Of a stretch of 64,000 nucleotides of DNA, positions 26,845-47,914 are shown one piece after another. Source of the DNA: an uncultured Gammaproteobacteria bacterium (lineage in GTDB: Bacteria; Patescibacteriota; Patescibacteriia; UBA10025; JAHIVO01); assembly GCA_964592105.1 (NCBI GenBank), contig CAZQBL010000013.1, forward strand, positions 17,706 to 81,705, read 5' to 3'. The first letter of the stretch is position 1; each line of letters opens with the position of its first letter. Under the pieces are notes generated by a model. That model saw only the letters and a list, made by a program, of their open reading frames with translations. It ran no database searches and was not told the origin of the DNA. The translations under genes were made by a program, and so were the position numbers.

Positions 26845-27627
26845 TTATCGCCTAAAAGGTTTGACTCCCGGTGGTCGGGCAGCATTAAACGGCATAACAT
26901 GTATCCTGCCTCTGATCTCGCCCGGACCCACAAAAAATGGCATCACTCTGATAGCGCTGAAAATATGTTCATTAGCTGACCGCAAATCACCTATAATCCT
27001 GACCAACTGCCCCTCTTCGAAGGAAAATATGGTTGGCTGGTAAGTGTTCGCTTCAACCACGATCCAATTCTGACCGGAAAAATCCTCTAACTCAAACAAC
27101 TGAGGCTTGGCAAGCTCCTTGATTACTTCTCCGGCTAGTAAACCTCTCTCCGGCTGGACCAATAACTGCTCGCGGTCATGCATCAGCACCCCATAAAAAG
27201 GCACCTGACGATTGAGAAAATAGTGTATTTGGGACGCCAAACCAAAACAGTAAACAGTGCCGCCCAAAACTAAACTCAACGCTAAGCTACCAATGACAAC
27301 CCAGTAGGCATGATATTTATAGCCTTCTTTGGTATGGCGGGCGTTGTAATAAGCCAACAACACAAATAAGGCCATGATGACTATCCACAGATATGGCATG
27401 GTGTCCAAAAAATGCTGAAAAGGAGTGCGCGGCAGATATTCTAGTACCTCCCAATCGGAATTGACAAATTCGAACAATATTACACTAAAAGCCAAACTAC
27501 CGATCAGAACTGAAACCGCTGCTGCCGCCCAAACCAACCAGTGTTTAAGCAAAAACTGCCAGCGAGGCTTAGGCTTGATGCCCGCTTCCTTAATTGTCTG
27601 GATGATTTTTTCGCTAATGTCGTTCAT
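26845..27627 (-). CDS. multi-TM membrane protein, putative anti-sigma factor partner
   Basis: 4-nt overlap (ATGA) with upstream ECF sigma gene; cytoplasmic N-terminus then TM segments; inference from context. Confidence 0.45.
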   Translation of the reverse strand: MNDISEKIIQTIKEAGIKPKPRWQFLLKHWLVWAAAAVSVLIGSLAFSVILFEFVNSDWEVLEYLPRTPFQHFLDTMPYLWIVIMALFVLLAYYNARHTKEGYKYHAYWVVIGSLALSLVLGGTVYCFGLASQIHYFLNRQVPFYGVLMHDREQLLVQPERGLLAGEVIKELAKPQLFELEDFSGQNWIVVEANTYQPTIFSFEEGQLVRIIGDLRSANEHIFSAIRVMPFFVGPGEIRGRIHVMPFNAARPPGVKPFRR

Positions 27628-28217
27628 ATTCCTATATTTCCATTTTTTATTGCTTCACGTAATTTTTCCTTGGCCCTACTCAATAAAGTCCCCACCGTAC
27701 CGATGGGTTTTTTTAAAATATCCGATATTTCCTGATAATCCCTTTCCTCTAAATACTTTAACACCAGAACTTCTTTATATTTTGAATCTAACTCGGCCAA
27801 TAGTTTACGCACAACTTCGCCTGTCAATCGGCTGCTGATTTTTTCATGTAAGTCTTTACCGTCTTTTATCAGGGCCAAAATTTTCTCACCCTCTTCGCCG
27901 TTGATTGTCTGGGTCCTGGCCTGATTACTACGATAATAACTGATAACTTTGTTATGAGTTATACGATAAATCCATGAAGAAAATTTCAAACTTTGATCAA
28001 AATCGTTTAAATTTCGATATACGGTCAAAAAAATTTCCTGCAACAAATCCTCGATATCTTCTCTGGCCAGACCGGAAATACGAAAAATATACCTTGTCAG
28101 TTTGTGTTCGTATCTTTTCACCAGCCCCCCATACCAATCGGGGTTTTGAATGGTCAATTTAACCAGCTCCTCGTCTGATTTATTTTGGAAATCCTCAATG
28201 GGTATCATAAAAAACAA
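27624..28217 (-). CDS. RNA polymerase ECF-type sigma-70 factor
   Basis: region 2 (IEDLLQEIFLTVYRNLNDFD...FSSWIYRITHNKVISYYR) and region 4 HTH (YQEISDILKKPIGTVGTLLSRAKEKLR). Confidence 0.85.
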   Translation of the reverse strand: MFFMIPIEDFQNKSDEELVKLTIQNPDWYGGLVKRYEHKLTRYIFRISGLAREDIEDLLQEIFLTVYRNLNDFDQSLKFSSWIYRITHNKVISYYRSNQARTQTINGEEGEKILALIKDGKDLHEKISSRLTGEVVRKLLAELDSKYKEVLVLKYLEERDYQEISDILKKPIGTVGTLLSRAKEKLREAIKNGNIGI

Positions 28218-31010: not shown

Positions 31011-31056
31011 GAGACGTCTCTATTGCAGTGGTCACCGTTATTAACTGAGACGTCTC
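31011..31056. promoter_or_regulatory. two copies of perfect 10-bp palindrome GAGACGTCTC (31011-31020, 31047-31056) in copA upstream region
   Basis: Seen directly; located 72-117 bp upstream of copA start; candidate metalloregulator operator. Confidence 0.4.
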
Positions 31057-31083: not shown

Positions 31084-31455
31084 TTATTTAACGATCACCT
31101 TCCCCTGATACATCCCCATATCACAGGTAAAAGAGATCTCGCCGGTTTGGGCGGGAGTAAATTTCACATCTGTAACACCAAAAGGTTTCAGGTCCTTCCG
31201 GACATTTTGTCCTTCAAACGTGACAAACCGCGAACACGAAGTATCTTCCTGTCGGTTAAAATGTACAACCAGCGGTACGCCGGCTTTGGCCGTAATCACA
31301 TTTGGATCATATGCCCCTTTCACCAGGATAGTGACCTCCTGCTTGCCGCCTTGTTCCATAGCCTGTTCCTGCTTGCGCTGAAACCGGAGCCAAAGGAAGA
31401 ACAATCCGACGATAATTGCGATAAGTACAATACCGACAATTTGAATTATTTGCAT
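31084..31455 (-). CDS. membrane-anchored cupredoxin-like putative copper-binding protein
   Basis: N-terminal TM; C-terminal beta-rich domain ending FTCDMGMYQGKVIVK, paralogous to C-terminus of the 499-aa protein (FSCTMGM). Confidence 0.55.
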   Translation of the reverse strand: MQIIQIVGIVLIAIIVGLFFLWLRFQRKQEQAMEQGGKQEVTILVKGAYDPNVITAKAGVPLVVHFNRQEDTSCSRFVTFEGQNVRKDLKPFGVTDVKFTPAQTGEISFTCDMGMYQGKVIVK

Positions 31456-31466
31456 ACGATTATTAA

Positions 31467-31682
31467 TTAAGAAATTGGTAATTCAACCGAATATGACCCC
31501 GCTCTCTCAATTTCCTCCTTTAGTCGCTGCCAGTCAAGATGCTCATCATGTTCAATGACCGTCTGACCCGAATGATAGTCAACACTGCACGACTGTATTT
31601 CCGGAAAATCACGACAGACGTCCTCAAGTAAGGCTTTGCATGACGGACAATGAGTTCCTCCAATGGTTATGGTTGTTTTCAT
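31467..31682 (-). CDS. heavy-metal-associated (HMA) domain copper chaperone, CopZ-like
   Basis: 71 aa, GGTHCPSC metal-binding loop. Confidence 0.75.
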   Translation of the reverse strand: MKTTITIGGTHCPSCKALLEDVCRDFPEIQSCSVDYHSGQTVIEHDEHLDWQRLKEEIERAGSYSVELPIS

Positions 31683-31685
31683 AAA

Positions 31686-33185
31686 TTAATCGGTTAAACA
31701 CATAGCCGTGGCCGGATCGCACTCGCTTAAATCCTGCGGTCCGGCGGCGGTGTTAGTATTAGCTGTCTTGTCTACGTCAATACCAGATTCCACCACGGTG
31801 AAGGCGGCGCCAGGCGTAGTCATACCCATAGTACAACTGAAGTTAAGAGTACCGGTTTTGGTGGGGGTAAATTTGATTGTTTTAATGCCCTGACGAGGCA
31901 GCATTTCGGTGATGCCCATTTCAGGCATGGTAATAACTCTAGCACAACCAGCCGCCTGGCTGGCGTCAATTTGCCACTCCACTGTAATCCCTTTCTTCAC
32001 CGTAAAACGGGACGGATAATAGTCGTACCCTTTGACCATCATCTTAACCACCTGCACCCCGTTCGCCTCCTCTGAACTGCCAAGCGCGCCACTACTCTGT
32101 TCAACTGTACTAGTTCGGGACGACCCAGTACCGACTACCGTAATGCCGGCCATAGCAAAACCCCGGCTGATGTTAAAAATACCTACCAGAATCACCACTA
32201 CTCCTGCAAACTGGAAAAAGCGTTTTTGCCAGGCTGCTTTCAAAAAACTGGATACCGCACTAACAGAAAGCAAGGCTGGTAGTGTTCCAAGGGAGAAAAT
32301 CAACATGGTCAGTGCGCCGGTCACCATATCGCCCTTGCTCAAAACATAGAGCTGCAATGCCTGGGTAAACCCGCACGGCAGAAAAAAAGTCAGTGCTCCG
32401 AACAAAAAGGGGGCTATTTTTCCACGGCTGTGACCACCGGCATCATAAATCTTATGAGCGATAAATTTCGGCATCCGGGGCTGGAAACGTGATAGCCAGG
32501 GAAAAACATTCAACAACTGTAAGCCCAAAATAACCATTACCGCGCTGATGACAATGGTTACAATGCCGTTGACCGTCGCGGATAAACTAAGCACCGAACC
32601 CAGTAGCCCAACCGCTCCGCCTAAAACCATATAAGACACAATTCGTCCAGCGTTAAAATACAGATGGACCCGGAACCGTTGCTTACCAGTCAATTCTGGG
32701 TGTTGCTCATTATACCTGGCCGCCACTGCTAATAACAATCCGCCAGTAACCGCCATACAGGTGGAGACGGCGGCTACTAAACCAATCATTAGTACCACGC
32801 CGTAACTCATGTTTTCCGAAACGCCAATATCCGGGAGAATCTGCAACCGACGCAAAATTAAATAAACAGCTACCACAATCAGGGAAATTGCCCCAATTTG
32901 AAAATAGTCTTTTCTTGAATGCTTGACCAAGGCTTCGCCGGAAATAGTATATCCGTGGGTCTGAATCAGACTTTCCAATTCATGAATTTCGGGTCGTCGC
33001 GAGCAAACCAATTCCGCTTTACCCGACGCGTAATTGACTTTTACTTTTTCCACGCCCGGTACCAACCTGAACTGCCGCTCAATCAACACTTCACAGGCGG
33101 CACAATGCATCCCTTTTATTTTTAATTCTATTTTTTGGAAATTATTTGATGACATAATAAAAAACCTAACATTATTAAAATCCAT
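31686..33185 (-). CDS. three-domain fusion: N-terminal HMA domain, multi-TM permease-like core with intramembrane Cys (CcdA/DsbD_2- or TauE-like), C-terminal cupredoxin-like domain
   Basis: GMHCAACEV (HMA); ~8 TM incl. AVSTCMAVTGG and FFLPCGFTQ; C-terminus KTIKFTPTKTGTLNFSCTMGM. Confidence 0.6.
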   Translation of the reverse strand: MDFNNVRFFIMSSNNFQKIELKIKGMHCAACEVLIERQFRLVPGVEKVKVNYASGKAELVCSRRPEIHELESLIQTHGYTISGEALVKHSRKDYFQIGAISLIVVAVYLILRRLQILPDIGVSENMSYGVVLMIGLVAAVSTCMAVTGGLLLAVAARYNEQHPELTGKQRFRVHLYFNAGRIVSYMVLGGAVGLLGSVLSLSATVNGIVTIVISAVMVILGLQLLNVFPWLSRFQPRMPKFIAHKIYDAGGHSRGKIAPFLFGALTFFLPCGFTQALQLYVLSKGDMVTGALTMLIFSLGTLPALLSVSAVSSFLKAAWQKRFFQFAGVVVILVGIFNISRGFAMAGITVVGTGSSRTSTVEQSSGALGSSEEANGVQVVKMMVKGYDYYPSRFTVKKGITVEWQIDASQAAGCARVITMPEMGITEMLPRQGIKTIKFTPTKTGTLNFSCTMGMTTPGAAFTVVESGIDVDKTANTNTAAGPQDLSECDPATAMCLTD

Positions 33186-33229: not shown

Positions 33230-33643
33230 TTACGCCCCGAGCCAGAGCCGCAAGCAAAAAATTGAACAACTTACTTTCCGATTCCCTATTTTTTCATTAC
33301 GCCAGTGCTGCCACGGTGGTGAATAGCCGGCCATAACCTTCTTCACTCCCAGAATTATTGAAACGACCAGTAAAGTCAGAACCAAGAAGACAAGCGGCTC
33401 TTGGTTCAAAATTGCCGCGGAAAAACTCTGCCAAAAAGCCAAATGACCACTCACCCCCATGGGACAGAGCGTGGCACCGCGTTGCCTGAACGGACAATCG
33501 GCCATCAGGTCGTCGGTGCTTATAGTCATGCTTACCAGTAACACAAAAACGCCAGTACCGAAAAAACCGAGCAGACATACTAACGCTGTCAGCGCAAATA
33601 ATTTATTCAGTTGTGATATATGTAAAAATGATAGAAATGGCAT
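33230..33643 (-). CDS. hypothetical Cys-containing membrane protein
   Basis: TM segments plus DCPFRQRGATLCPMG; ORF only. Confidence 0.35.
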   Translation of the reverse strand: MPFLSFLHISQLNKLFALTALVCLLGFFGTGVFVLLVSMTISTDDLMADCPFRQRGATLCPMGVSGHLAFWQSFSAAILNQEPLVFLVLTLLVVSIILGVKKVMAGYSPPWQHWRNEKIGNRKVSCSIFCLRLWLGA

Positions 33644-33730
33644 GATAATGGATATTATATAAGTATATCACAACCGTTATCCCTGCCAAGACGGGCATTT
33701 GCTGTCAACAAATCCTTCACAAAAACGCGC

Positions 33731-34848: not shown

Positions 34849-35460
34849 TTACTGAAGCTGGCCCGCCAACTCACGGGTGATAAAATCTTTCAATTTTCTG
34901 AAAGCCAGGCCGCGGTGGCTTAAACTGTTTTTTTCCTCACTGGACATTTCCGCAAATGTCTTATTATGGCCATCGGGGATAAATATCACGTCATAAGGCA
35001 TTAGCGGTCTGACCGGACCATGAGGTTCGGTGGTCAAAAAACCATTTATAGTTCCTGAAAAAATCCAGTACTGCCCTTCCGGCGACACCAAGGCCACCGT
35101 ACAAACGAACTTAGCTTGGCGTTTTTCGGGCGGCAGACCCTCGGTCTTGGCCAAAACTTTTTCGACCAATTGCATACCGCCGGATCCCGCACCCGCATAG
35201 CGCGCCGAATAAACTCCCGGCTCGCCGTTTAAAGCCTCCACGCATAAACCAGAATCATCGGCCACGGCCCATTGCCCGGATCTCTCCGAAACAAACCTAG
35301 CTTTTTTCAAAGCATTAGCCTCAAAGGTTTCCCCATCCTCTTCAACATCATCACTCACGCCCGCCTCATCCGCGCTGACTATATCCAGCGATAAACCACT
35401 TAATATCTGGCGCATTTCTATAATTTTCCCCGAATTATGAGTGGCAAAGACCAATTTCAT
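34849..35460 (-). CDS. rdgB: non-canonical purine NTP pyrophosphatase (Ham1/RdgB)
   Basis: KLVFATHNSGKIIEMRQIL N-terminus, Ham1 fold length. Confidence 0.85.
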   Translation of the reverse strand: MKLVFATHNSGKIIEMRQILSGLSLDIVSADEAGVSDDVEEDGETFEANALKKARFVSERSGQWAVADDSGLCVEALNGEPGVYSARYAGAGSGGMQLVEKVLAKTEGLPPEKRQAKFVCTVALVSPEGQYWIFSGTINGFLTTEPHGPVRPLMPYDVIFIPDGHNKTFAEMSSEEKNSLSHRGLAFRKLKDFITRELAGQLQ

Positions 35461-36017
35461 ATTTTATTTTTTCCAGCCAAGGACACTGCCCTGGTTATTA
35501 GTTTATGAAGTTGTTGAAAAGTCTTGGAATCGACCAGTGATCCATCTGGATTAAAAGCTTTGTCGGCAAAACGGACTGTCACTTGGGGCTGGGGCACTAC
35601 TATGACATTCAGAGAAGCCAAAATCTGACGCAGTTGCGGTTGCATGCGGGCAGTACCGTAGGGACCATCGGAGGCCCCACAAATTACTGCCACTTTACCA
35701 GCAAACGAATTGTCACTCCGCGACGCCCAGTCTATAGCGTTTTTTAGCACACCGGAAACTGAATGGTTGTACTCCGGCGAAGCAATCAGCAGAAGATCGG
35801 CATCAGCAATTAATGATTTAAGCTTTATAACCGGCTCGGGTAAGATCGGTCGCTCAAGGTCTTCATTATATAAAGGCAAAACCAATTCTCTCAAATCGGC
35901 TTCATTAACCCGAGCATCTAAGTCTTCCGCTATTTTTCGTGCTACGCTCAAAAGCCGGCGATTATACGAATTCCGCCGTAAACTGCCGCAGATCGCCAAT
36001 ACTTTTAGATGTTCCAT
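35457..36017 (-). CDS. NAD(P)H-dependent FMN reductase (flavodoxin-like)
   Basis: KVLAICGSLRRNSYNRRLL motif. Confidence 0.75.
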   Translation of the reverse strand: MEHLKVLAICGSLRRNSYNRRLLSVARKIAEDLDARVNEADLRELVLPLYNEDLERPILPEPVIKLKSLIADADLLLIASPEYNHSVSGVLKNAIDWASRSDNSFAGKVAVICGASDGPYGTARMQPQLRQILASLNVIVVPQPQVTVRFADKAFNPDGSLVDSKTFQQLHKLITRAVSLAGKNKI

Positions 36018-40576: not shown

Positions 40577-40653
40577 CGGGGTATGGCGCAGTTGGCTAGC
40601 GCGCATGCATGGGGTGCATGAGGCCGTGGGTTCAAGTCCCACTACCCCGACCA
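40577..40653 (+). tRNA. tRNA-Pro (anticodon GGG), CCA encoded
   Basis: Cloverleaf folded by hand: acceptor CGGGGTA/TACCCCG, D-stem GCGC/GCGC, anticodon stem CATGC/GCATG with loop ATGGGGT, T-arm GTGGG-TTCAAGT-CCCAC. Confidence 0.85.
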
Positions 40654-40697
40654 AGTTAGACTTTTTTGAAATTCAGAGGCGATTGGTTGCTCGCTCG

Positions 40698-40761
40698 CCG
40701 CGCCTTTGGCGCGGAAAGCAGACGGGCAAAAATTCCTTCCCCCCAACCCCCTCTTTCCGCC
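40698..40761. repeat. left GC-rich flank repeat: hairpin CCGCGCC-TTT-GGCGCGG plus motif GGGCAAAAATTCCTTCC
   Basis: Imperfect inverted copy of 48005-48098 (17/17 core match, ~75% over ~65 nt). Confidence 0.5.
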
Positions 40762-40921
40762 ACGTCCTCGCTTTGAATGCCGTCGGAATTTGTATTTTGT
40801 TTCGCAAAATGCGTCGCAAGAAAAAGAAGTATTGCCCTTGCCCCAGCCCACCCGTGCGCGGGCGACAACAAGAAACTTCCTATTTGTTGACTAAACAAAT
40901 TAAATTGTGTACTATAATGTT

Positions 40922-40972
40922 AGTATTAGTCATCTAATTGTAGATAAATTATTGTATTTTAATACTAATACT
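40922..40972. promoter_or_regulatory. 9-bp inverted repeat AGTATTAGT...ACTAATACT upstream of XRE regulator gene
   Basis: Seen directly, ends 12 bp before the XRE start codon; candidate autoregulatory operator (C-box-like). Confidence 0.35.
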
Positions 40973-40983
40973 ATCATACCATA

Positions 40984-41196
40984 ATGTCAATGAAAAAAAC
41001 AACAATAGCAAAGAATATAAAGAAGTTGCGAAAGCAACGGGGTTTGTCGCAGGACAAATTGTCCAAATTGGCTAATATTTCCCATAATACGATCATAAAA
41101 ATTGAGTCCGGCGCCATACAAAGCCCGACAATGGACACGGCAAGCAAAATCGCCAAAGCCCTTGGCGTTTCGCTTGATGATTTAGTCAACAAATAA
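40984..41196 (+). CDS. XRE-family helix-turn-helix transcriptional regulator (possible R-M controller protein)
   Basis: IKKLRKQRGLSQDKLSKLANISHNTIIKIESG HTH_3 motif; 70 aa; 4 nt before hsdR. Confidence 0.8.
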   Translation: MSMKKTTIAKNIKKLRKQRGLSQDKLSKLANISHNTIIKIESGAIQSPTMDTASKIAKALGVSLDDLVNK

Positions 41197-41200
41197 AATT

Positions 41201-43705
41201 ATGCAAAAAGAAGCCAAGGCCAGAATAAAAATCAATGAGTTGCTTCAAAATGCCGGCTGGAGATTTTTTGATGATGAAAACGGAAAAGCAAATATTGTTT
41301 TGGAAAACAACGCCAAAATCACAAAGCAAGCCATTGATGAATTTGGCAACGATTTTGAAAAAACCAAAAAAGGATTTATTGATTTTTTATTGCTTGATGA
41401 CAAGGGATTTCCACTGGTAGTTTTAGAGGCAAAATCGGAAGACAAAGACCCGCTTGACGGCAAAGAGCAGGCCCGCCGTTATGCCCAATCTCAAAACGCT
41501 CGCTTTATTATACTTTCAAACGGCAATCTTCATTACTTTTGGGATTTGGAACGAGGCAATCCGGCAATTATTACTACTTTCCCAACTTATGAATCTTTGA
41601 AGCATTTGGAAACTTTCAAACCGAGCTTTTCAATTCTTTCAGAGGAAAAAGTTGAAAGCGATTATATTGTTCAAACGCAAAACCCGACTTATCAAAAAGA
41701 TCCTCGATGGATTGATGAAACGCAAAGAGCAGATTTTATCAAAGAGCAAGATTTGAAATTTTTGCGCCCCTATCAATTAGCTGCAGTTCATGCTTTGCAA
41801 AATTCGGCGAAGAAAGGAAATGACCGCTATCTTTTTGAAATGGCGACCGGAACAGGCAAGACACTTGTTTCAGCCGGTGTGATTAAACTTTTTTTGAAAA
41901 CAGGAAACGCTAAAAGAATTTTGTTTTTGGTTGACCGGTTAGAATTGGAAGACCAAGCGTACAAAAATTTCAAAAAAATCCTGCATAACGATTTTAACAG
42001 TGTGATTTACAAAGAAAATCGCGATGACTGGCGAAAGGCGGAAATTGTTGTTTCAACTGTGCAAAGTTTATCGTTTGACAATAAATACAAAAAACTTTTT
42101 TCGCCCACTGATTTTGACTTGATAATTTCTGATGAAGCCCATCGCTCCATTGGCGGAAACAGCCGCGCTGTTTTTGAGTATTTTGTCGGCTATAAATTAG
42201 GGCTTACGGCAACACCGAAAGATTATCTCAAAAACATTGACCCGCAAAAAATCAGCGAAAAAGACCCGCGAGCGTGGGAACGTCGCCAGCTTTTAGACAC
42301 TTACACAACTTTTGGCTGTCCTTCCGGCGAGCCGACTTTCCGTTATAGTTTGCTGGACGGCGTAAAAGACGGCTATCTTGTCAATCCGGTTGTCGCAGAC
42401 GCGAGAACTGAAATCACCACCGAGCTTTTATCCGAAAAAGGTTATGCCTTGATGGTTGAAAATGAGGAAGGCATAGAGGAAGAACAAACCTTTTTTCAAA
42501 AAGATTTCGAACGAAAGTTTTTTTCAGAAAAAACCAATCAGATTTTCTGCAAAACATTTTTGGAAAACGCGCTTAAAGACCCAATCAGCGACGAAATCGG
42601 CAAGAGCATTGTTTTTTGCGTCAACCAAAAACATGCTTCAAAAGTTACCCAAATCTTAAACCAGTTTGCTGATCAACTTTGGCCCGGCAAATATAATTCC
42701 GATTTTGCCGTGCAAGTTACCTCCAATATCAAAGACGCACAGCAATTTACTATCAATTTCGCAAACAACAACTTAAACGGCCAAACAAAATGGCTAGCGG
42801 GCTATAAATCCAGCAAAACCAGAGTTTGCGTAACTGTCGGCATGATGACGACCGGCTACGACTGCCAGGATATTTTGAATCTTTGTTTGATGCGTCCGAT
42901 TTTTTCACCGACTGATTTTATCCAAATTAAAGGACGAGGCACAAGAAAATATACATTTAAATACAAAGATGCTGATAGTGAAGAAATAATAGCAGAAAAA
43001 GAAACTTTTAAACTTTTTGATTTCTTTGCTAATTGTGAATATTTTGAAGAAAAATATAATTATGACCAAGTTTTGCAATTACCGATTAAAACTGGAACAC
43101 GAACGGAGGGCGGCGAAGGTGTTGATATTGACGAGGTGAGCATTTTTAATCCTGATCCGCTCAAAACTTTTTCGGAAAAAGCCGTCGGCCTTGCCGGCAT
43201 GAAAGTTGACTGGAAGCTGTTTGAAAAGTTTGAACAAACTGTAAAAAATGATCCAATAGTTAAGCAAAAATACGAACAAGGAGATATTCAAGGCGTTGAA
43301 GAATATGTCAAAGGGGAAATTTTTGAAAAGCCTGAGGATTACTTCAATCTGGAAAAGCTGCGCAAAGCAGTTAAGGCCGACCGACGCATCACACTTAGAG
43401 AATTTATTGAAAAAATTTTTGGCGGTATAAAGAAATTTAAAACCAAAGACGAGCTTTTGGAAGAAGAATTTGAAAAGTTTGTTGCGATTTACAAGCCAGA
43501 TAATAAATATGCACTGCTTATCAAAAATTATCTCAAGGCGTATATCACTGATCCGGAAATCCGCGACATTGTGGAAACCAAAGAATACAGCCGTTTTGCC
43601 ACTAATCCAAAAGTTACGATGAAAGACTTTCGCGACCTAAACGGCTGGCGAGAAGTTGTGCCGGAATACGTCAAAGATTATGTGTCGCTTAATACTTTTA
43701 TGTAA
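41201..43705 (+). CDS. hsdR: type I restriction enzyme R subunit (HsdR; PD-(D/E)xK N-domain + SF2 helicase + EcoEI_R_C-like tail)
   Basis: N-terminus NELLQNAGW, DFLLLDD...VVLEAK nuclease motif; ATGTGKT (motif I), DEAH; 834 aa. Confidence 0.85.
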   Translation: MQKEAKARIKINELLQNAGWRFFDDENGKANIVLENNAKITKQAIDEFGNDFEKTKKGFIDFLLLDDKGFPLVVLEAKSEDKDPLDGKEQARRYAQSQNARFIILSNGNLHYFWDLERGNPAIITTFPTYESLKHLETFKPSFSILSEEKVESDYIVQTQNPTYQKDPRWIDETQRADFIKEQDLKFLRPYQLAAVHALQNSAKKGNDRYLFEMATGTGKTLVSAGVIKLFLKTGNAKRILFLVDRLELEDQAYKNFKKILHNDFNSVIYKENRDDWRKAEIVVSTVQSLSFDNKYKKLFSPTDFDLIISDEAHRSIGGNSRAVFEYFVGYKLGLTATPKDYLKNIDPQKISEKDPRAWERRQLLDTYTTFGCPSGEPTFRYSLLDGVKDGYLVNPVVADARTEITTELLSEKGYALMVENEEGIEEEQTFFQKDFERKFFSEKTNQIFCKTFLENALKDPISDEIGKSIVFCVNQKHASKVTQILNQFADQLWPGKYNSDFAVQVTSNIKDAQQFTINFANNNLNGQTKWLAGYKSSKTRVCVTVGMMTTGYDCQDILNLCLMRPIFSPTDFIQIKGRGTRKYTFKYKDADSEEIIAEKETFKLFDFFANCEYFEEKYNYDQVLQLPIKTGTRTEGGEGVDIDEVSIFNPDPLKTFSEKAVGLAGMKVDWKLFEKFEQTVKNDPIVKQKYEQGDIQGVEEYVKGEIFEKPEDYFNLEKLRKAVKADRRITLREFIEKIFGGIKKFKTKDELLEEEFEKFVAIYKPDNKYALLIKNYLKAYITDPEIRDIVETKEYSRFATNPKVTMKDFRDLNGWREVVPEYVKDYVSLNTFM

Positions 43706-43736
43706 GTTAGTATGAAAATTATCTAACGGACTAAAT

Positions 43737-46181
43737 ATGCTCACTCAAGAAACCAAAAGAAAAATTGACTCCGCCCGCGATATTTTGGTCGGCAAAGTGC
43801 CGGACCCCAAAGCGCAAGTTGAGCAAATCACCACCGCTTTAATTTACAAGTTTATGGACGATATGGACAAAGAAGCGCAGGAGCTTGGCGGCAAAGCGCG
43901 CTTTTTTACCAACGGCTACGAAAAATACGCGTGGACAAAATTGATGGACGCCAAACTTGGCGGACACGAGCGTCTTGATTTATATCTTGAAGCGATTACT
44001 TTTTTATCTCGCAATCCGCATATCCCCCAGCTTTTCCGCGACATTTTCAAAGACGCATTTTTGCCGTATCGCGACTCCGAAACTCTGAATTTATTTTTGA
44101 AAGAAATTAACGGATTTACTTATGACCATAGCGAAGATTTAGGCGATGCTTTTGAATATCTGCTTTCAATTCTTGGCTCACAAGGCGACGCTGGACAATT
44201 CCGCACGCCACGCCATATTATTGATTTTATTGTGGCGGCGGTTGCTCCGAAAAAAGACGAAACAATATGCGACCCCGCTTGCGGAACGGCTGGATTTTTA
44301 ATTTCTGCCTATAAGCATATTCTGAAAACAAATAAAGAAAAACCCTTGACTCCGGACGAGCGGAAAAAATTGATGGATCATTTTGTCGGCTATGATATTT
44401 CGCCTGATATGGTGCGGCTTTCCAAAGTCAATTTATATCTGCACGGTTTTCCAAACCCAACCATTTTTGAATACGATACACTCACGAGCGAAGAAAAATG
44501 GGAAGACAATTTTGACGTGATGCTGGCCAATCCGCCGTTCATGTCGCCCAAAGGCGGCATCCGCCCGCATAAGAGGTTTTCGGTGCAAGCCAATCGCGCG
44601 GAAGTCCTGTTTGTTGATTATATTTTAGAACATCTAAAACCCAACGGCCGAGCCGGCATTATCGTGCCGGAAGGGATAATTTTTCAATCTGCCAATGCTT
44701 ACAAACAATTGCGTAAAAACTTGATTGAAGACGGCCTTTTTGCCGTTGTCTCTCTGCCGCCGGGCGTCTTTCAGCCGTATTCAGGAGTAAAGACTAGCGT
44801 TTTGCTTTTTGATAATGCTTTAGCTAAGAAAACAAAAGACCTTTTATTTTTGAAAATTAAAAACGACGGCTATGACCTTGGCGCGCAAAGGCGGGAAATA
44901 GATAAAAATGATTTGCCGTTAGCGTTAGAAATAATCAAAAAATACAAAAACGCATTAAAAGAAAGCAATGAATTTAAATTGAACGAGAAGCAGGCAAAAA
45001 TCGCTCATCTTGTTGCCAAAGAAAAAATTGCTCAAAGTGGTGATTATAATCTTTCTGGAGATAGATACATAGAAACTGTGAATTTCGTCAATCAAAAATG
45101 GCCATTGGTGGAGTTGCAAAAAGTTACTAAGATTGATTGGGGTAACACTGAACTAACGAAGAAATCTTATATTAAGAATGGTGAATTTCTCGGTGTGAGC
45201 GCTACCGGCGCTGATGGTCGAATTAATCATTTTGAGCACGAAGTTGGTGTTACTGTTCTGTCTGCAATCGGCGCAAATTGTGGTAAGGTATTTTATCCGA
45301 CCGAAAAATTTACTGCTATAAAAAATACAATCACTATTACGCCTGATAGTAAGAAATTGAAGCCAAAATTTCTGTTCTACATAATGAAAAGTAATACCTT
45401 GCCTAAACGAGGTGGCGGTCAACCTTTTATGTCAAAAGGTGATGTTGAAAAGTATAAAATCCCCCTTCCGCCGCTTGAAGTTCAAAAAGAAATCGTTGAG
45501 CAAATTGAAGTAAAACAAAAAGCCATTGAAGCCGCCAAAGCGGTAATTGAAAATCTTGAGAGAGAGAGACGCTATTTTGGCCAGTCACTTAGGAAATTAG
45601 AAGATGTTGAGTGGGTAGAGTTAGAAAAAGTTGCTAACTTTTTTGAAGATGGTAATTGGATTGAGAGCAAGGATCAAGCAGACAACGGTATAAGACTTAT
45701 TCAAACTGGAAATATCGGCATAGGCGAGTATTTAGATAAAGCAGAAAAATCGCGCTTCGTTTCCGAAAATACATTCAAGAAATTAAAGTGTACAGAAATT
45801 TTTGAAGGTGATATTTTAATTTCGCGATTACCCGATCCAGTTGGTCGTGCTTGTTTGCTACCAAAATTAGAAACAAGAGCGATCACAGCAGTTGATTGTA
45901 CTATTGTTAGATTTGACAATAAAAAAGTTATTCCGAAATTCTTCCTATTATATTCAATGACTGGTGATTATTTTAGTAGTCTTGCTCAATACTTAACCGG
46001 TGCAAGTAGGCAAAGGATAAGTCGTCTTAATTTAGGAAAGGTTAAAATCCCACTCCCACAGCTTGAAGTCCAAAAACAGCTGGTTGCAGATATGGAAGAG
46101 CAGGAAAAAATCATTGAGGTGAATAAAAAATTGATAAAGATATTGGAGCAAAAAATTTCTGATGTTTTAAGAGAAATATAG
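43737..46181 (+). CDS. fused type I R-M methyltransferase-specificity protein (HsdM N6-adenine MTase + two HsdS target-recognition domains)
   Basis: GQFRTPRHII, DPACGTAGFL (motif I), NPPF (motif IV); C-terminal half has two TRDs each followed by conserved coiled-coil spacer (PLPPLEVQKEIV... / IPLPQLEVQKQLV...). Confidence 0.85.
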   Translation: MLTQETKRKIDSARDILVGKVPDPKAQVEQITTALIYKFMDDMDKEAQELGGKARFFTNGYEKYAWTKLMDAKLGGHERLDLYLEAITFLSRNPHIPQLFRDIFKDAFLPYRDSETLNLFLKEINGFTYDHSEDLGDAFEYLLSILGSQGDAGQFRTPRHIIDFIVAAVAPKKDETICDPACGTAGFLISAYKHILKTNKEKPLTPDERKKLMDHFVGYDISPDMVRLSKVNLYLHGFPNPTIFEYDTLTSEEKWEDNFDVMLANPPFMSPKGGIRPHKRFSVQANRAEVLFVDYILEHLKPNGRAGIIVPEGIIFQSANAYKQLRKNLIEDGLFAVVSLPPGVFQPYSGVKTSVLLFDNALAKKTKDLLFLKIKNDGYDLGAQRREIDKNDLPLALEIIKKYKNALKESNEFKLNEKQAKIAHLVAKEKIAQSGDYNLSGDRYIETVNFVNQKWPLVELQKVTKIDWGNTELTKKSYIKNGEFLGVSATGADGRINHFEHEVGVTVLSAIGANCGKVFYPTEKFTAIKNTITITPDSKKLKPKFLFYIMKSNTLPKRGGGQPFMSKGDVEKYKIPLPPLEVQKEIVEQIEVKQKAIEAAKAVIENLERERRYFGQSLRKLEDVEWVELEKVANFFEDGNWIESKDQADNGIRLIQTGNIGIGEYLDKAEKSRFVSENTFKKLKCTEIFEGDILISRLPDPVGRACLLPKLETRAITAVDCTIVRFDNKKVIPKFFLLYSMTGDYFSSLAQYLTGASRQRISRLNLGKVKIPLPQLEVQKQLVADMEEQEKIIEVNKKLIKILEQKISDVLREI

Positions 46182-46183
46182 TT

Positions 46184-47914
46184 ATGTTTATCAAATCCCT
46201 TACAATCAAAAATTTTCGCTGTTTCGGAAAAGGAACGGACGAAAAAGGCACAACAATAAACTTAAATAATGGCTTAACCGCTTTTATCGGCAGAAACGGA
46301 AGCGGCAAAACTGCTATTTTGGAAGCGTTGAATTTTTTAATCGGCTCGGATTATTTGCCGACAAAAATTAATGAGAAAGATTTTAACAGTGACGCAAAAG
46401 ATATAAAAGACGAGATTGTAATTGAGGGCGAGACGGAAAAGCCGTTTTTTGCAACACTTGATGTTCGCTCAAACACCAATCAGCTTGAAACAATTATTAT
46501 TCCCTGCAATAAAATCAAGCTCACGATTAAGCGGCGAGAAAAACCGGAAAAGGTTTTAGACGATCCTTTTATCATCAATAAGTATGTTTTGCCGATTGTT
46601 GGCGATATTGATGAGAGTATTTTTGAAGAAGATGAAAAAGCGCGCAAAGCCTCTAGGATTGACCAAATCAAAGAAGGTTATACCGTTTTTTACAAACTTA
46701 AAGACGGGCAAGAGCGTAATGCCAAAGTAATAAGTTATCAGCTTACTTACAATCCAAATCGCCTGACAAAATGTCCAAAATCTTACTATCTCTCAAAGGA
46801 CAGAGACGATGATGTTGCCGGCAATTATTCTCTTATCGCGAAAATTTTAACCGACCTGCATTGGAAGTATAAGAAAAAGCAGGCAGGCGGCGAAAATACG
46901 ATTTCCTGCGAATATAACACGCTTGCCGGATCGTTACGGGGCATTGTGGACGAAAAGAGCATATTGATTAACAGAATAAACGAAAAAGTAAAAGCGATTT
47001 GTTGCGATGACAAAAATTTTCAGATTGATTTTATTGATATTGACCAACCTTACAAATCAGCTTTTGTCGCAAAAAAGGAAGGCAAAAAATTGCTTTTGCC
47101 TGACAATCTTGGCTCTGGTTTTAACATCTTGATTGCTTACGCTCTTTTTGCGTATGTCGCCGACCAAGAGAAAATCCCTATTGTTTTGATTATTGACGAG
47201 CCGGAACTGCATATGCATAGCGACTGGCAAAAGAAAATGTATGAGGTTTTTACCAAACAAACCGATCTGCAATTCGTTTATTCCACCCAATCTGAAAATT
47301 TTATTTCGTTGAAAAACTGGAAACAAATCCGTTCAATTTCAGATTTTCAAGTTTTTCCAAAAAAGGAGATTTTACAAGAGCAGATCACCGCAACAGATGG
47401 ACAAAATGGAACAAGGGCGGATTATCTTGATGATTACGCAACAAAAAATTTGCATATCAGTACAATATTGCGCGAAAATCTTGAGTTATTTTTTGCCAAA
47501 AAATGCGTTTTGGTCGAAGGCCCGTCGGAAAAATATGGCTTGCCGAAACTTTTGAAACTTTCCAGCTGTGATGTTGATAATTTTTCTGTTTCAATAATTC
47601 CGGCGTGGGGCAAAACGAAAATCAAAAATTATCAAATGATTTGTAAAGTTTTTGGCATAGATTACTTTACGATTTATGACAATGATAAAGCGGAAGACGA
47701 TGAACCGACAAACGAAAACACAGCGATTGAAAATAACGCCGAAAATGGAAAGAAGACAAGATTTTCAACAAGTTTTGAGGCAAAACTGGGAGTAACCGGG
47801 GAGAGTAAATTTCAAAAGTTGGTGAAAAAGATTGATGAGATAACCGATACAAACTCTTTGGATCAAGAAATTAAAACTTGTTTGAGCAACCTAAAAACCT
47901 TTATTGAAAGCTAA
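46184..47914 (+). CDS. OLD-family nuclease (N-terminal ABC/AAA_15-type ATPase + C-terminal Toprim)
   Basis: Walker A GRNGSGKTAILEAL; Toprim VLVEGPSEKYGLPKLL ... YDNDKAED; start 3 nt after hsdMS stop. Confidence 0.8.
   Translation: MFIKSLTIKNFRCFGKGTDEKGTTINLNNGLTAFIGRNGSGKTAILEALNFLIGSDYLPTKINEKDFNSDAKDIKDEIVIEGETEKPFFATLDVRSNTNQLETIIIPCNKIKLTIKRREKPEKVLDDPFIINKYVLPIVGDIDESIFEEDEKARKASRIDQIKEGYTVFYKLKDGQERNAKVISYQLTYNPNRLTKCPKSYYLSKDRDDDVAGNYSLIAKILTDLHWKYKKKQAGGENTISCEYNTLAGSLRGIVDEKSILINRINEKVKAICCDDKNFQIDFIDIDQPYKSAFVAKKEGKKLLLPDNLGSGFNILIAYALFAYVADQEKIPIVLIIDEPELHMHSDWQKKMYEVFTKQTDLQFVYSTQSENFISLKNWKQIRSISDFQVFPKKEILQEQITATDGQNGTRADYLDDYATKNLHISTILRENLELFFAKKCVLVEGPSEKYGLPKLLKLSSCDVDNFSVSIIPAWGKTKIKNYQMICKVFGIDYFTIYDNDKAEDDEPTNENTAIENNAENGKKTRFSTSFEAKLGVTGESKFQKLVKKIDEITDTNSLDQEIKTCLSNLKTFIES

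Follow-up and report, generated by a model that had tools for sequence, protein, structure and literature searches.

A putative copper-detoxification operon of a CPR bacterium encodes a DsbD/CcdA-like membrane protein fused to HMA and CupA-type cupredoxin domains

In the 64,000-nucleotide stretch of DNA analysed here (the window), four co-oriented minus-strand genes and a fifth small gene upstream of them make up a copper module, which is best explained as the copper-detoxification operon of a CPR bacterium with the gene order orf137, fusion, copZ, cupA-like and copA (Table 1). The fusion gene encodes a 499-aa protein with three conserved sulfur stations: C28/C31 in an N-terminal HMA domain, C143/C271 in a membrane core that sequence comparison assigns to the DsbD/CcdA superfamily, and C414/C451/M453/M455 in a CupA-type cupredoxin domain. 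We propose, with a confidence that falls only a little short of even, that Cu(I) may be handed along these stations independently of ATP, from CopZ to the HMA domain, then to the membrane cysteine pair and finally to the outer cupredoxin.

All three minus-strand ORFs that the original prediction had described upstream of copA lie where it placed them, and each motif that it quoted (AVSTCMAV, FFLPCGF, FSCTMGM and FTCDMGM) is present. Its domain calls, namely an HMA domain, a DsbD_2-like core, a cupredoxin-like domain, a free paralogue of the latter and CopZ, agree with both Pfam and the models, and the Pfam matches of the three ORFs are far beyond chance.

Table 1. Positions in the window of the genes, domains and sites of the copper module
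Feature	Position	Strand	Evidence or location
CopA, 735 aa	28732-30939	minus	Pfam and NCBIfam
Palindrome pair GAGACGTCTC	31011-31056	not assigned	cupA-copA intergenic region
Putative CupA-type membrane-anchored Cu(I) chaperone, 123 aa	31084-31455	minus	ORF, PDB sequence match, AF2 and Foldseek
CopZ-type HMA chaperone, 71 aa	31467-31682	minus	ORF, Pfam HMA
Fusion, 499 aa: HMA, 7 TM helices (predicted DsbD/CcdA-superfamily core), CupA-type cupredoxin	31686-33185	minus	
Nearly invariant Cys pair of the fusion, C489-D-P-A-T-A-M-C496	31698-31721	minus	homologue alignment
CupA-type cupredoxin domain of the fusion, residues 368-465	31791-32084	minus	Pfam Cupredoxin_1, profile search, Foldseek
Membrane region of the fusion, residues 91-345	32151-32915	minus	Pfam DsbD_2, AF2 helices
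HMA domain of the fusion, residues 17-86	32928-33137	minus	Pfam HMA
orf137, small two-TM protein	33230-33643	minus	ORF, homologues
Promoter-like site	33662-33689	minus	consensus scan only

Domains and topology of the fusion protein

Pfam recognises the three parts of the fusion as HMA (residues 21-79, E 2e-8), DsbD_2 (PF13386, residues 131-336, E 8e-40) and Cupredoxin_1 (PF13473, residues 368-460, E 2e-9), and the Cys and Met residues are invariant across 58 homologues. Among these are C28 and C31 of the HMA motif, G-M-H-C28-A-A-C31. The model of the HMA domain has pLDDT values above 90 and the expected secondary-structure elements, its CxxC is invariant, and Foldseek matches the HMA domain to domains of CopZ, PacS and ATP7B. 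The NCBIfam models for MerP, MerTP and MerA also match the HMA part, the MerTP model covering the HMA domain only.

Seven TM helices are found by the AF2 model and by hydropathy, not the eight or so first predicted: an extra helix, TM0, and a six-TM core, in which C143 lies in core TM1 and P270-C271 at the kink of core TM4. S141, C143, P270, C271, G272, F273 and T274 are invariant in the 58 homologues, and their conservation across 150 representatives is 90% or higher. The core also has family-specific invariant polar or soft residues (N178, R181, M217, Q275, Q278 and M294); two of these positions, N178 and M294, were checked in one alignment with E. coli DsbD and are unmatched there. The K+R bias puts the HMA domain inside and the cupredoxin outside in 58/58 homologues, and the former is predicted to be cytoplasmic and the latter extracytoplasmic. 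This topology agrees with the DsbD core, which starts and ends in the periplasm, given the alignment of C271 with DsbD Cys285.

That alignment comes from hhalign, which pairs the fusion core with E. coli DsbD at an E of 1.9e-4 and a probability of 47%, placing P270-C271 on the S-P-C of the redox-active Cys285 and leaving the first half unaligned. The first Cys motif of the fusion, S-T-C, does not have the flanking prolines of the DsbD P-C-x-x-P. Some homologues of the fusion additionally match DsbD_TM (PF02683), and the NCBIfam DsbD match of the fusion itself is weak. Searched against PDB chains, the core sequence gave a chance match only, and the full-length profile matched only HMA and CupA-type chains. 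The score of an internal 3+3 repeat test by hhalign, intended to set C143 opposite C271, was uninformative (E 0.32); the pTM of the AF2 model of the fusion is 0.54.

NCBI and JGI name the homologues "sulfite exporter TauE/SafE family protein", and a TauE-like core had been among the options first put forward. That the fusion exports sulfite or an organosulfonate, as these names would have it, can hardly be right: there is no TauE match in Pfam (E <= 0.1) or NCBIfam, as against the 8e-40 for DsbD_2, the genes around it are copper genes, and both fused domains are copper-binding. The absent Pfam match and the copper gene context effectively refute a TauE/SafE identity, and the misleading database name should be replaced.

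For the cupredoxin domain, a profile search finds CupA (1e-10) and the metal-binding domain (MBD) of pneumococcal CopA (4e-10), and Foldseek finds 4F2F (TM 0.87) and 4F2E (TM 0.83). AF2 and Foldseek return the cupredoxin fold that had been expected. The expectation that C-x-M-x-M forms a Cu(I) Cys/Met site and not a His2CysMet site has also held up: the motif equals the binuclear site of CupA, its ligands (C414, C451, M453 and M455 in the fusion) are conserved, and no His is conserved in the fusion cupredoxin (58 homologues) or in the 123-aa protein (36 homologues), which rules out a type 1 blue-copper His2-Cys-Met site in either domain.

The beta domain does not end at FSCTMGM, as had been supposed. 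A further 44 residues follow the motif, including the nearly invariant C489-D-P-x4-C496, a pair that in most relatives links to a second cupredoxin domain and here has no second domain behind it. The fusion gene is not a pseudogene truncated from the form with two cupredoxins, since close relatives end at the same place: P0002-P0004 and P0018, which are 60-73% identical, likewise stop after C-D-P-x4-C.

The CupA-type protein, CopZ and CopA

The 123-aa protein matches Pfam Cupredoxin_1 (E 6e-18), retrieves CupA (2MRY/4F2E) from the PDB by phmmer with an E of 7e-14 and is 37% identical to S. pneumoniae CupA by BLASTP. Its AF2 model has eight strands and a helix at residues 3-35, and the best PDB match of the model by Foldseek is 4F2E (TM 0.83, rmsd 1.8 Å, 36% identity). 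The four CupA ligands align with C74, C111, M113 and M115; of these, the two Cys do not vary among 36 homologues, and the conservation of the two Met is at least 90%. On average there are 0.03 K+R residues ahead of the TM helix and 3.5 behind it, and a single N-terminal membrane anchor is predicted, with the cupredoxin domain toward the cytoplasm. Sequence and model together suggest a CupA-type membrane-tethered Cu(I) chaperone, which would bind Cu(I) and transfer it to CopA.

CupA holds a binuclear Cu(I) site, formed by C74/C111 and by C74/M113/M115 (PMC5646241, PMC5552934), in which CxMxM is a defined Cu(I) site and through which, by way of C74/C111, Cu(II) can be reduced, the source of the electrons for resetting being unidentified (PMC5646241). 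The Cys/Met site of the module is of this already described kind, so that finding it here is recognition and not discovery. Reviews, however, confine CupA to a few streptococci (PMC7558416, PMC5646241), and the CupA-type Cu(I) site is more widely distributed than the literature says, occurring in a free chaperone in CPR bacteria and also as a predicted outward-facing domain in hundreds of CPR/DPANN protein clusters.

The likeness to the pneumococcal proteins extends beyond the cupredoxin fold shared with CupA and the CopA MBD (4F2E, 2MRY and 4F2F; TM-score 0.83-0.87, rmsd 1.4-2.1 Å): CupA and the 123-aa protein have the same ligand residue numbers, the same length of 123 aa, an N-terminal membrane anchor and a gene adjoining copA. 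Unlike CupA, the proteins described here belong to CPR bacteria and coexist with CopZ, and whereas CupA acts in the cytoplasm, the CupA-type domain of the fusion is predicted to lie outside the cell.

CopZ, the 71-aa protein, is recognised by Pfam as HMA (E 2e-7) and has the motif G-T-H-C-P-S-C; 3 nt separate its gene from the end of the fusion gene upstream. CopA is a P1B-type Cu(I)-exporting ATPase with one N-terminal HMA domain and a CPC motif (ACPCALG). Pfam and NCBIfam find in it the E1-E2 ATPase and HAD domains, the membrane CPC and the N-terminal HMA domain that define the P1B-1 type, and it scores 660 bits against NCBIfam TIGR01511, for which the cutoff is 397. Pfam gives no Cupredoxin_1 match in the CopA of the window, whose N-terminal domain is HMA where that of pneumococcal CopA is a cupredoxin, which leaves no counterpart to the pairing of two cupredoxins in pneumococcus.

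Distribution and genomic neighbourhood

Clustered at 50% identity, proteins with the fusion architecture make up hundreds of clusters, from CPR bacteria and from DPANN archaea, and we found no description of this architecture in the literature. The module, which the original prediction had called unusual, is therefore so only in being unstudied and not in being rare. Of 44 related loci, 37 have copA within 5 kb and 34 have copZ; in 28, copZ immediately follows the fusion, and in 8 of these the two genes overlap by 4 nt. The genes are paired, copZ with the fusion and the free cupA-like gene with copA, and CsoR or ArsR regulators head the gene clusters. About 80% of the 149 best representatives have the HMA domain; like Cu-ATPases, they carry between one and three copies of it. 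No related locus has merA or merR, and no recurring cuproenzyme gene was found in the fusion neighbourhoods. That the fusion family is kept beside copA and copZ in very small genomes argues that it matters, and so large an unstudied family could show how CPR/DPANN cells handle copper.

Two representatives, P0160, the core of which is 59% identical, and P0297, carry C-terminal ScsC_N and DSBA domains, and, of 46 loci, about 10 have a DsbA-like gene right beside the fusion (L005, L012 and L047) or in its vicinity (seven others). ScsC- and DsbA-like proteins are reduced by DsbD-family proteins. The 64-kb window has no thioredoxin-fold gene and no DsbA-like ORF, and a thioredoxin-fold gene is likewise missing from most related loci.

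Possible mechanisms

The copper shuttle, importer or exporter distinct from CopA that the original prediction put forward is a hypothesis. In the proposed hand-over, CopZ would load Cu(I) onto the HMA domain of the fusion, from which it would move by ligand exchange to C143/C271, a pair that would be exposed to each side of the membrane in turn; alternating access of this kind is known from the structures of CcdA. The outer cupredoxin would receive the Cu(I) and hold it, or release it after oxidation, away from the cytoplasm, and the flux could be coupled to the proton gradient if, on the outer side, protons displace Cu(I) from the thiolates. The fusion would act beside CopA, which the cytoplasmic CupA-like protein of CPR bacteria would serve as CupA does in pneumococcus.

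The HMA domain found in some four fifths of the representatives and repeated up to three times and the pairing of copZ with the fusion are pointers to copper and not electrons as the cargo. We also count in favour of Cu(I) transfer the family-specific core residues and the fact that, in the LysE superfamily, which includes DsbD, every other family is a secondary carrier of amino acids, lipids or heavy-metal ions, and several of them are metal-ion carriers (PMC4608589). Counting against it are the homology of the core to electron transporters, with a Cys at the DsbD catalytic position, the ScsC_N and DSBA fusions and DsbA-like neighbours, and the position of the cupredoxin just where the gamma domain of DsbD, its direct electron acceptor, would be. 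Export, moreover, has no evident energy source, and CopA already exports. That the fusion represents a new class of Cu(I) translocase, one that works independently of ATP and is built on the DsbD/CcdA electron-transporter fold with an HMA donor and a CupA-type cupredoxin acceptor on the two sides of the membrane, is something we hold only tentatively, as somewhat less than an even prospect. If true, it would be the first DsbD-family protein to carry a metal ion, and not a disulfide, on its membrane Cys pair, and would provide a new transport mechanism. In CPR bacteria and DPANN archaea alike, it would be the conserved, standard companion of CopA and CopZ.

A serious alternative, absent from the original prediction and one that we on the whole doubt, is that the fusion conducts electrons as ScsB and CcdA do. 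The membrane Cys pair would then move reducing equivalents outward instead of copper and keep the Cys ligands of the cupredoxin reduced, plus a ScsC/DsbA-like partner where there is one; the outer domain would take up the Cu(I) that CopA pumps out, act as a Cu(II) reductase or mend disulfides damaged by copper, and the HMA domain would serve as a gate that senses copper or as a dithiol donor of an unusual kind in the cytoplasm. The DsbD_2 and weak NCBIfam DsbD matches speak for this, as do the alignment of P270-C271 with the S-P-C of Cys285 and the ScsC/DsbA-like extensions (P0160, P0297) and genes (adjoining in L005, L012 and L047, near in seven more). ScsC is reduced by ScsB in copper resistance (PMC3322552, PMC10907172), the reduction of Cu(II) by CupA through C74/C111 calls for resetting electrons (PMC5646241), and Cys-based Cu sites outside a single-membrane cell would need a reductant. 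Yet the characterised DsbD-family cores all feed a thioredoxin-fold domain (PMC3322552), where the fusion has a cupredoxin, and neither the window nor most related loci offer a thioredoxin-fold gene; the HMA domain, at times in two or three copies, has no known electron-transfer role, copZ is translationally coupled to the fusion, and S-T-C is without the prolines of the DsbD motif. A DsbD-fold reductase dedicated to a copper site outside the cell would likewise be new, and it would explain how the cysteines of CupA-type sites become reduced again.

Copper might also travel from outside to inside, captured by the cupredoxin, possibly after reduction of Cu(II), and delivered over the membrane Cys pair to the HMA domain and CopZ, a direction that seems to us improbable. 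The three stations would serve either direction, and there is a precedent in Hg(II) import by MerP-MerT-NmerA, in which an HMA domain works with a membrane Cys pair. Reduction of Cu(II) is possible at CupA-type sites (PMC5646241). Against uptake, the fusion gene nearly always shares its operon with that of the exporter CopA and is under copper or metal repressors of the detoxification type (CsoR, ArsR), and no cuproenzyme gene recurs in the neighbourhoods; the known copper demand of CPR and DPANN organisms is also small. That the same stations pass on another soft metal, or that the fusion is mainly a membrane copper sensor or buffer without transport, we consider very unlikely. Bis-thiolate sites do bind Ag(I), Au(I) and Hg(II), and the HMA part scores with the MerP, MerTP and MerA models, but the loci are devoid of merA and merR, the partner ATPase is of the CPC-containing P1B-1 copper type, CxMxM is a Cu(I) site (PMC5646241), and a buffer would not need an invariant Cys pair in mid-membrane.

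Relation to known transport systems

With DsbD, CcdA and ScsB (TC 5.A.1), the fusion shares DsbD_2 Pfam membership, a six-TM core that starts and ends outside, a putatively equivalent Cys in core TM1, a Pro-preceded Cys in core TM4 that aligns with DsbD Cys285, and a C-terminal extracytoplasmic domain with a Cys pair; ScsB-ScsC resembles the module in its link to copper resistance and in the ScsC/DsbA-like proteins fused or adjacent to some fusion relatives. In those systems, however, the outer acceptor has a thioredoxin fold, whereas the fusion has a Cu(I) cupredoxin. The extra N-terminal TM helix places the HMA domain at the cytoplasmic side, where thioredoxin docks on DsbD, and the core differs in its proline-free first Cys motif and in invariant Asn, Arg, Gln and Met residues of its own.

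MerP-MerT-NmerA is alike in principle, a soft metal passing between an HMA CxxC, a membrane Cys pair and a further Cys site across the membrane. It is unlike the fusion in that the membrane parts have no sequence homology, the NCBIfam MerTP match being to HMA only. The two HMA domains also face different sides of the membrane, the relays are presumed to run in contrary directions, and their metals differ. CopZ/CopA export has in common with the fusion the HMA-to-HMA delivery from CopZ, a variable number of N-terminal HMA domains and the same operon, and the Pro-preceded Cys in a kinked TM helix recalls the CPC motif of CopA. Unlike CopA, the fusion has no ATPase domains and an unrelated membrane fold, and it has an extracytoplasmic acceptor domain, which CopA has not.

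orf137 and candidate regulatory sequences

The gene directly upstream of the fusion, orf137, is probably the first of the operon. Its product has a loop with a conserved C-P-[FL]...C-x-M...H...W and no match in Pfam or NCBIfam; homologues occupy the same place upstream of the fusion in loci L001, L002, L007 and L013, and C50, P51, C60 and W71 are invariant among them.

Between the cupA-like gene and copA, a 10-bp palindrome, GAGACGTCTC, occurs in two copies 36 bp apart (2 observed, 0.01 expected), a candidate pair of operators or RNA hairpins. The palindrome is in none of the 47 related loci, which rules out an operator conserved throughout the family. About 20 nt upstream of orf137, a consensus scan finds TTGGCA-16-TATACT with a TG, a weak candidate for the promoter.

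Organization of the copper gene cluster

Five consecutive ORFs, all on the minus strand, form a copper gene cluster in the window. Among the neighboring genes are those for a ribosomal-protein operon, EF-Tu/EF-G, GatCA, LigA, and type IV pilins, which, taken with the source names of homologues, assign the window to a genome of the candidate phyla radiation (CPR; Patescibacteria). The 735-aa protein is a P1B-type copper ATPase (CopA) with one N-terminal HMA domain, the motif ACPCALG, and a TIGR01511 score of 660 bits (Pfam, NCBIfam). All of the motifs cited in the original prediction of an HMA-permease-cupredoxin fusion, a free paralog, and CopZ are present in the ORFs, so that observation stands.

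Copper genes and other features in the window
Feature	Position	Strand	Description
orf137	33230-33643	-	ORF
Fusion, 499 aa	31686-33185	-	ORF; Pfam HMA, DsbD_2, Cupredoxin_1
71-aa protein	31467-31682	-	ORF 3 nt downstream of fusion; Pfam HMA
123-aa protein	31084-31455	-	ORF 11 nt downstream of 71-aa ORF; Cupredoxin_1, E 6e-18
CopA, 735 aa	28732-30939	-	ORF after 144-nt gap; E1-E2_ATPase and HAD domains
Palindrome GAGACGTCTC, two copies	31011-31020, 31047-31056		Perfect, 10 bp; copies 36 bp apart
ECF sigma factor and multi-TM protein	26845-28217	-	SigW-like, 197 aa; 4-nt overlap with 260-aa protein; ~500 nt downstream of copA
NADPH-dependent FMN reductase and Ham1-type NTP pyrophosphatase	35457-36017, 34849-35460	-	4-nt overlap; ~2 kb upstream of copper genes
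tRNA-Pro(GGG) block	40577-47914	+	tRNA-Pro(GGG), then HsdR-like helicase (834 aa), N6-methylase/specificity fusion (814 aa), OLD-family AAA-TOPRIM nuclease (576 aa)

Predicted structure and topology of the fusion

Pfam places HMA at residues 21-79 of the fusion, DsbD_2 at 131-336 (E 8e-40), and Cupredoxin_1 at 368-460 (E 2e-9). The TauE-like option once offered for the core falls away, as neither Pfam nor NCBIfam gives a TauE match, and the database name “TauE/SafE sulfite exporter” for the family is likewise unsupported. The AlphaFold model, built on 58 homologues (mean pLDDT 75.9, above 90 in the HMA and beta domains and 70-88 in the membrane part; pTM 0.54), has an HMA fold, then seven long helices (91-113, 128-161, 167-198, 203-224, 257-283, 287-314, and 317-345), the fifth broken at P270-C271, and then a beta domain at 372-465. 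Its top Foldseek match in the PDB is 4F2F (TM 0.87, rmsd 1.4 Å), followed by 4F2E (TM 0.83) and CopZ-type HMA domains, and the family profile matches CupA at 1e-10 and 4F2F at 4e-10. The C-terminal domain is thus cupredoxin-like, as originally proposed, and the Cys/Met motif noted there proves invariant: C414, C451, M453, and M455, which correspond to the CupA ligand set when aligned with the 123-aa protein, are unchanged in all 58 homologues, as are C28 and C31 of the HMA domain, S141 and C143, and P270-C271-G-F-T. C489-x-P-x4-C496 is nearly invariant, and across a more distant set of 150 representatives the conservation of both membrane cysteines stays at 90% or above.

Counts of Lys+Arg per loop favor HMA inside and cupredoxin outside in 58/58 sequences, with a mean of 6.7 in the TM3-TM4 loop versus 0.7-1.4 in the putative outer loops. 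Profile comparison aligns residues 174-339 with E. coli DsbD 210-377, weakly and over the second core half only (E 1.9e-4, probability 47%), setting P270-C271 on the S-P-C of the redox-active Cys285 (precursor C304). The two positions checked, N178 and M294, are unmatched in this sole DsbD alignment obtained; the fusion core contains invariant Asn, Arg, Gln, and Met residues particular to the family. Both ends of the DsbD core face the periplasm, so the extra N-terminal helix of the fusion is just what a cytoplasmic HMA and an outer C-terminal domain would require. On this predicted topology, the fusion would carry three sulfur stations: cytoplasmic, mid-membrane, and outer.

The 123-aa protein is a CupA-type chaperone

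Searched with phmmer against all PDB chains, the 123-aa protein matches Streptococcus pneumoniae CupA (2MRY/4F2E, E 7e-14) and, at E 8e-9, 4F2F, the metal-binding cupredoxin domain of the pneumococcal CopA; identity to CupA is 37% across 94 residues (BLASTP). The binuclear Cu(I) site of CupA consists of a high-affinity site, C74 and C111, and a low-affinity site, C74, M113, and M115 (PMC5646241), and all four ligands match exactly, with identical residue numbers. None of the 36 homologues, all from CPR bacteria, departs from C74 or C111, and conservation of D112-M113-G-M115 is 90% or higher. The AlphaFold model has a long N-terminal helix (3-35) and then eight strands, with 4F2E as the best solved structure (TM 0.83, rmsd 1.8 Å) and 4F2F next. 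Because positive charges lie only after the helix (essentially none before, mean 3.5 just after), an N-out, C-in orientation is predicted, which would leave the copper domain cytoplasmic, in line with the proposal for CupA. The strongly conserved stretch W-L-R-F-Q-R-K-Q-E following the helix resembles a docking element on the inner face of the membrane.

CupA has been described as confined to a few streptococci (PMC7558416, PMC5646241), and a Rhizobiales survey turned up PF13473 proteins without the CupA motif (PMC5552934); the CPR proteins therefore count as real CupA-type sites in a new lineage, and the 123-aa protein extends the CupA kind to a further phylum. The systems differ in one defining feature, CopA, whose N-terminal domain is a cupredoxin in pneumococcus and an HMA in the window (Pfam).

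Distribution, architectures, and gene neighborhood

With a cutoff of E ≤ 1e-5, a word-indexed search gave 5371 proteins; 117 of the best 120 matches have HMA, DsbD_2, and Cupredoxin_1, and the remaining three are without one fused domain. An exhaustive HMMER search of 50%-identity cluster representatives with the membrane core alone found 5209 at E ≤ 1e-3, of which 455 reach E ≤ 1e-30. HMA-TM-CUP is the commonest architecture in the best 149 of these (78), followed by HMA-TM (17), HMA-TM-CUP-CUP (15), TM-CUP (14), and TM only, partly fragments (12); a few have two or three HMA domains. Most CPR homologues are ~585 aa long, with a second cupredoxin (G-G-C-M...C-S-M-G) after a C-D-P-x4-C linker, just past which the window fusion and its closest relatives (P0002-P0004, P0018) stop. 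This shared end rules out a truncation; the window fusion is a natural short form. Among the unusual relatives, P0030 carries a C-terminal DUF3105, and in P0279 the C-terminal half of a CopA runs into a DsbD_2 core without an intervening HMA.

Of the 44 genome loci, all but one belong to CPR bacteria (Kerfeld-, Pacei-, Peri-, Gottesman-, and Buchananbacteria) or DPANN archaea (Woesearchaeota, Nanoarchaeota); the exception is an Oscillospiraceae locus at 35% identity. The CPR and DPANN fusions share 47-55% identity and similar operons, which suggests that the whole module was transferred between them. Many loci labeled “uncultured Methanosarcinales” show the DPANN-type gene order.

copA lies within 5 kb of the fusion in 37/44 loci, the exceptions being mostly at contig ends, and copZ is present in 34/44, directly downstream of the fusion in 28 and with a 4-nt overlap in eight of those. 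The DPANN order is ArsR, (methyltransferase-like gene), copA, fusion, copZ, and the CPR order (orf137 or DsbA-like), fusion, copZ, (cupA-like), copA. In each of the five CPR loci with a free cupA-like gene, that gene immediately precedes copA, often with an overlap; from these positions, copZ pairs with the fusion and cupA with copA. One locus, L046, has a split form: CsoR, copA, HMA-DsbD_2 (340 aa), and Cupredoxin_1 (158 aa). This neighborhood of copA, copZ, and repressors, split form included, marks a putative copper-detoxification module under metal-responsive repressors.

ArsR-type regulators head 17 clusters. A membrane-anchored winged-helix regulator of ~167 aa (DUF7343/MarR-like; L009:5454-5957 and 13 other DPANN loci), its N-terminal part reading TM, C-x(9,10)-C-P, TM, is found repeatedly next to the fusion/copA genes, in many cases with a DsbA-like partner gene; it may act as a one-component sensor in the membrane for copper or thiol stress. 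In L035, L037, L023, and L042, a ~200-aa family with His-rich motifs (HLHP...PLHTHDESG) separates the DsbA-like gene from the fusion or else directly follows the fusion.

What passes along the three stations

We regard as firm that this is a copper module with a CupA-type chaperone, predicted to be cytoplasmic, and that the fusion, whose membrane part belongs to the DsbD superfamily, has three cysteine pairs, which the predicted topology places in the cytoplasm, in mid-membrane, and outside; what passes along these stations we infer. Our preference, held tentatively, is for a Cu(I) relay, in which the HMA domain would exchange Cu(I) with CopZ, the purpose of HMA domains, each station could hold Cu(I) between two thiolates, and protons driving Cu(I) off the outer-face thiolates might supply the driving force. 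HMA occurs in ~80% of the family (best 149 representatives), its copy number of one to three recalling that of copper ATPases; the translational coupling of copZ to the fusion also counts toward a relay, as do the core's own invariant polar and Met residues. In the Mer relay, an HMA site gives up Hg(II) to a membrane Cys pair, from which it moves on to another HMA site, an outline resembling that proposed here.

The main rival, which we rate as only somewhat less likely, is an electron conduit like ScsB/CcdA. The outer cupredoxin occupies the position of DsbD-gamma, its Cys ligands would oxidize outside the cell, and CupA can reduce Cu(II), its own reductant not being established (PMC5646241). 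Hard to account for otherwise are the ScsC/DsbA fusions and neighbors: P0160 (core 59% identical) and P0297 read HMA-DsbD_2-Cupredoxin_1-ScsC_N-DSBA, L005, L012, and L047 have a membrane-anchored DsbA-like gene as the one directly preceding the fusion (L047 also a second after copA), and seven further loci have one nearby. ScsC is a copper-tolerance oxidoreductase kept reduced by the DsbD-family ScsB (PMC3322552, PMC10907172). Most loci, however, are without a thioredoxin-fold acceptor, and HMA has no known electron-transfer role; no DsbA-like ORF was found in the 64-kb window. Import, other soft metals, or sensing are minor alternatives.

Taken singly, the parts (CopA, CopZ, a CupA-type cupredoxin, and a DsbD-superfamily core) are all familiar in kind; no description of their combination was found in the literature searched. 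Distinctive are the three fused parts, with HMA and the CupA-type site on predicted opposite sides, and the near-universal association with copA and copZ in CPR and DPANN. Since it is widespread, the module is not peculiar to the window genome, and experiments on it could uncover either a copper transport mechanism of a new kind or the agent that reduces CupA-type sites.

Other features near the copper genes

The small orf137 protein, without a family in Pfam or NCBIfam, has two TM helices and a predicted outward-facing loop with a conserved C-P-[FL]-x8-C-x-M...E-H-[LI]..W; in four CPR loci (L001, L002, L007, L013) a homologue directly precedes the fusion gene, and orf137 may be a further extracytoplasmic thiol or copper component of the operon. 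Both copies of the palindrome fall in the gap between the cupA-like gene and copA, with none elsewhere in the 64 kb (two found, 0.01 expected) and none in 47/47 related loci; it could be a regulator's operator or an RNA structure. In contrast to related loci, no metal repressor (CsoR, CopY, ArsR) is encoded beside the window's module. The 260-aa partner of the ECF sigma factor may be its anti-sigma factor. The FMN reductase/Ham1 pair showed no tie to the copper module in other loci. The plus-strand block, with a G+C of 0.37-0.40, lower than the rest of the window, and opposite GC skew, looks like a defense island inserted next to tRNA-Pro(GGG).
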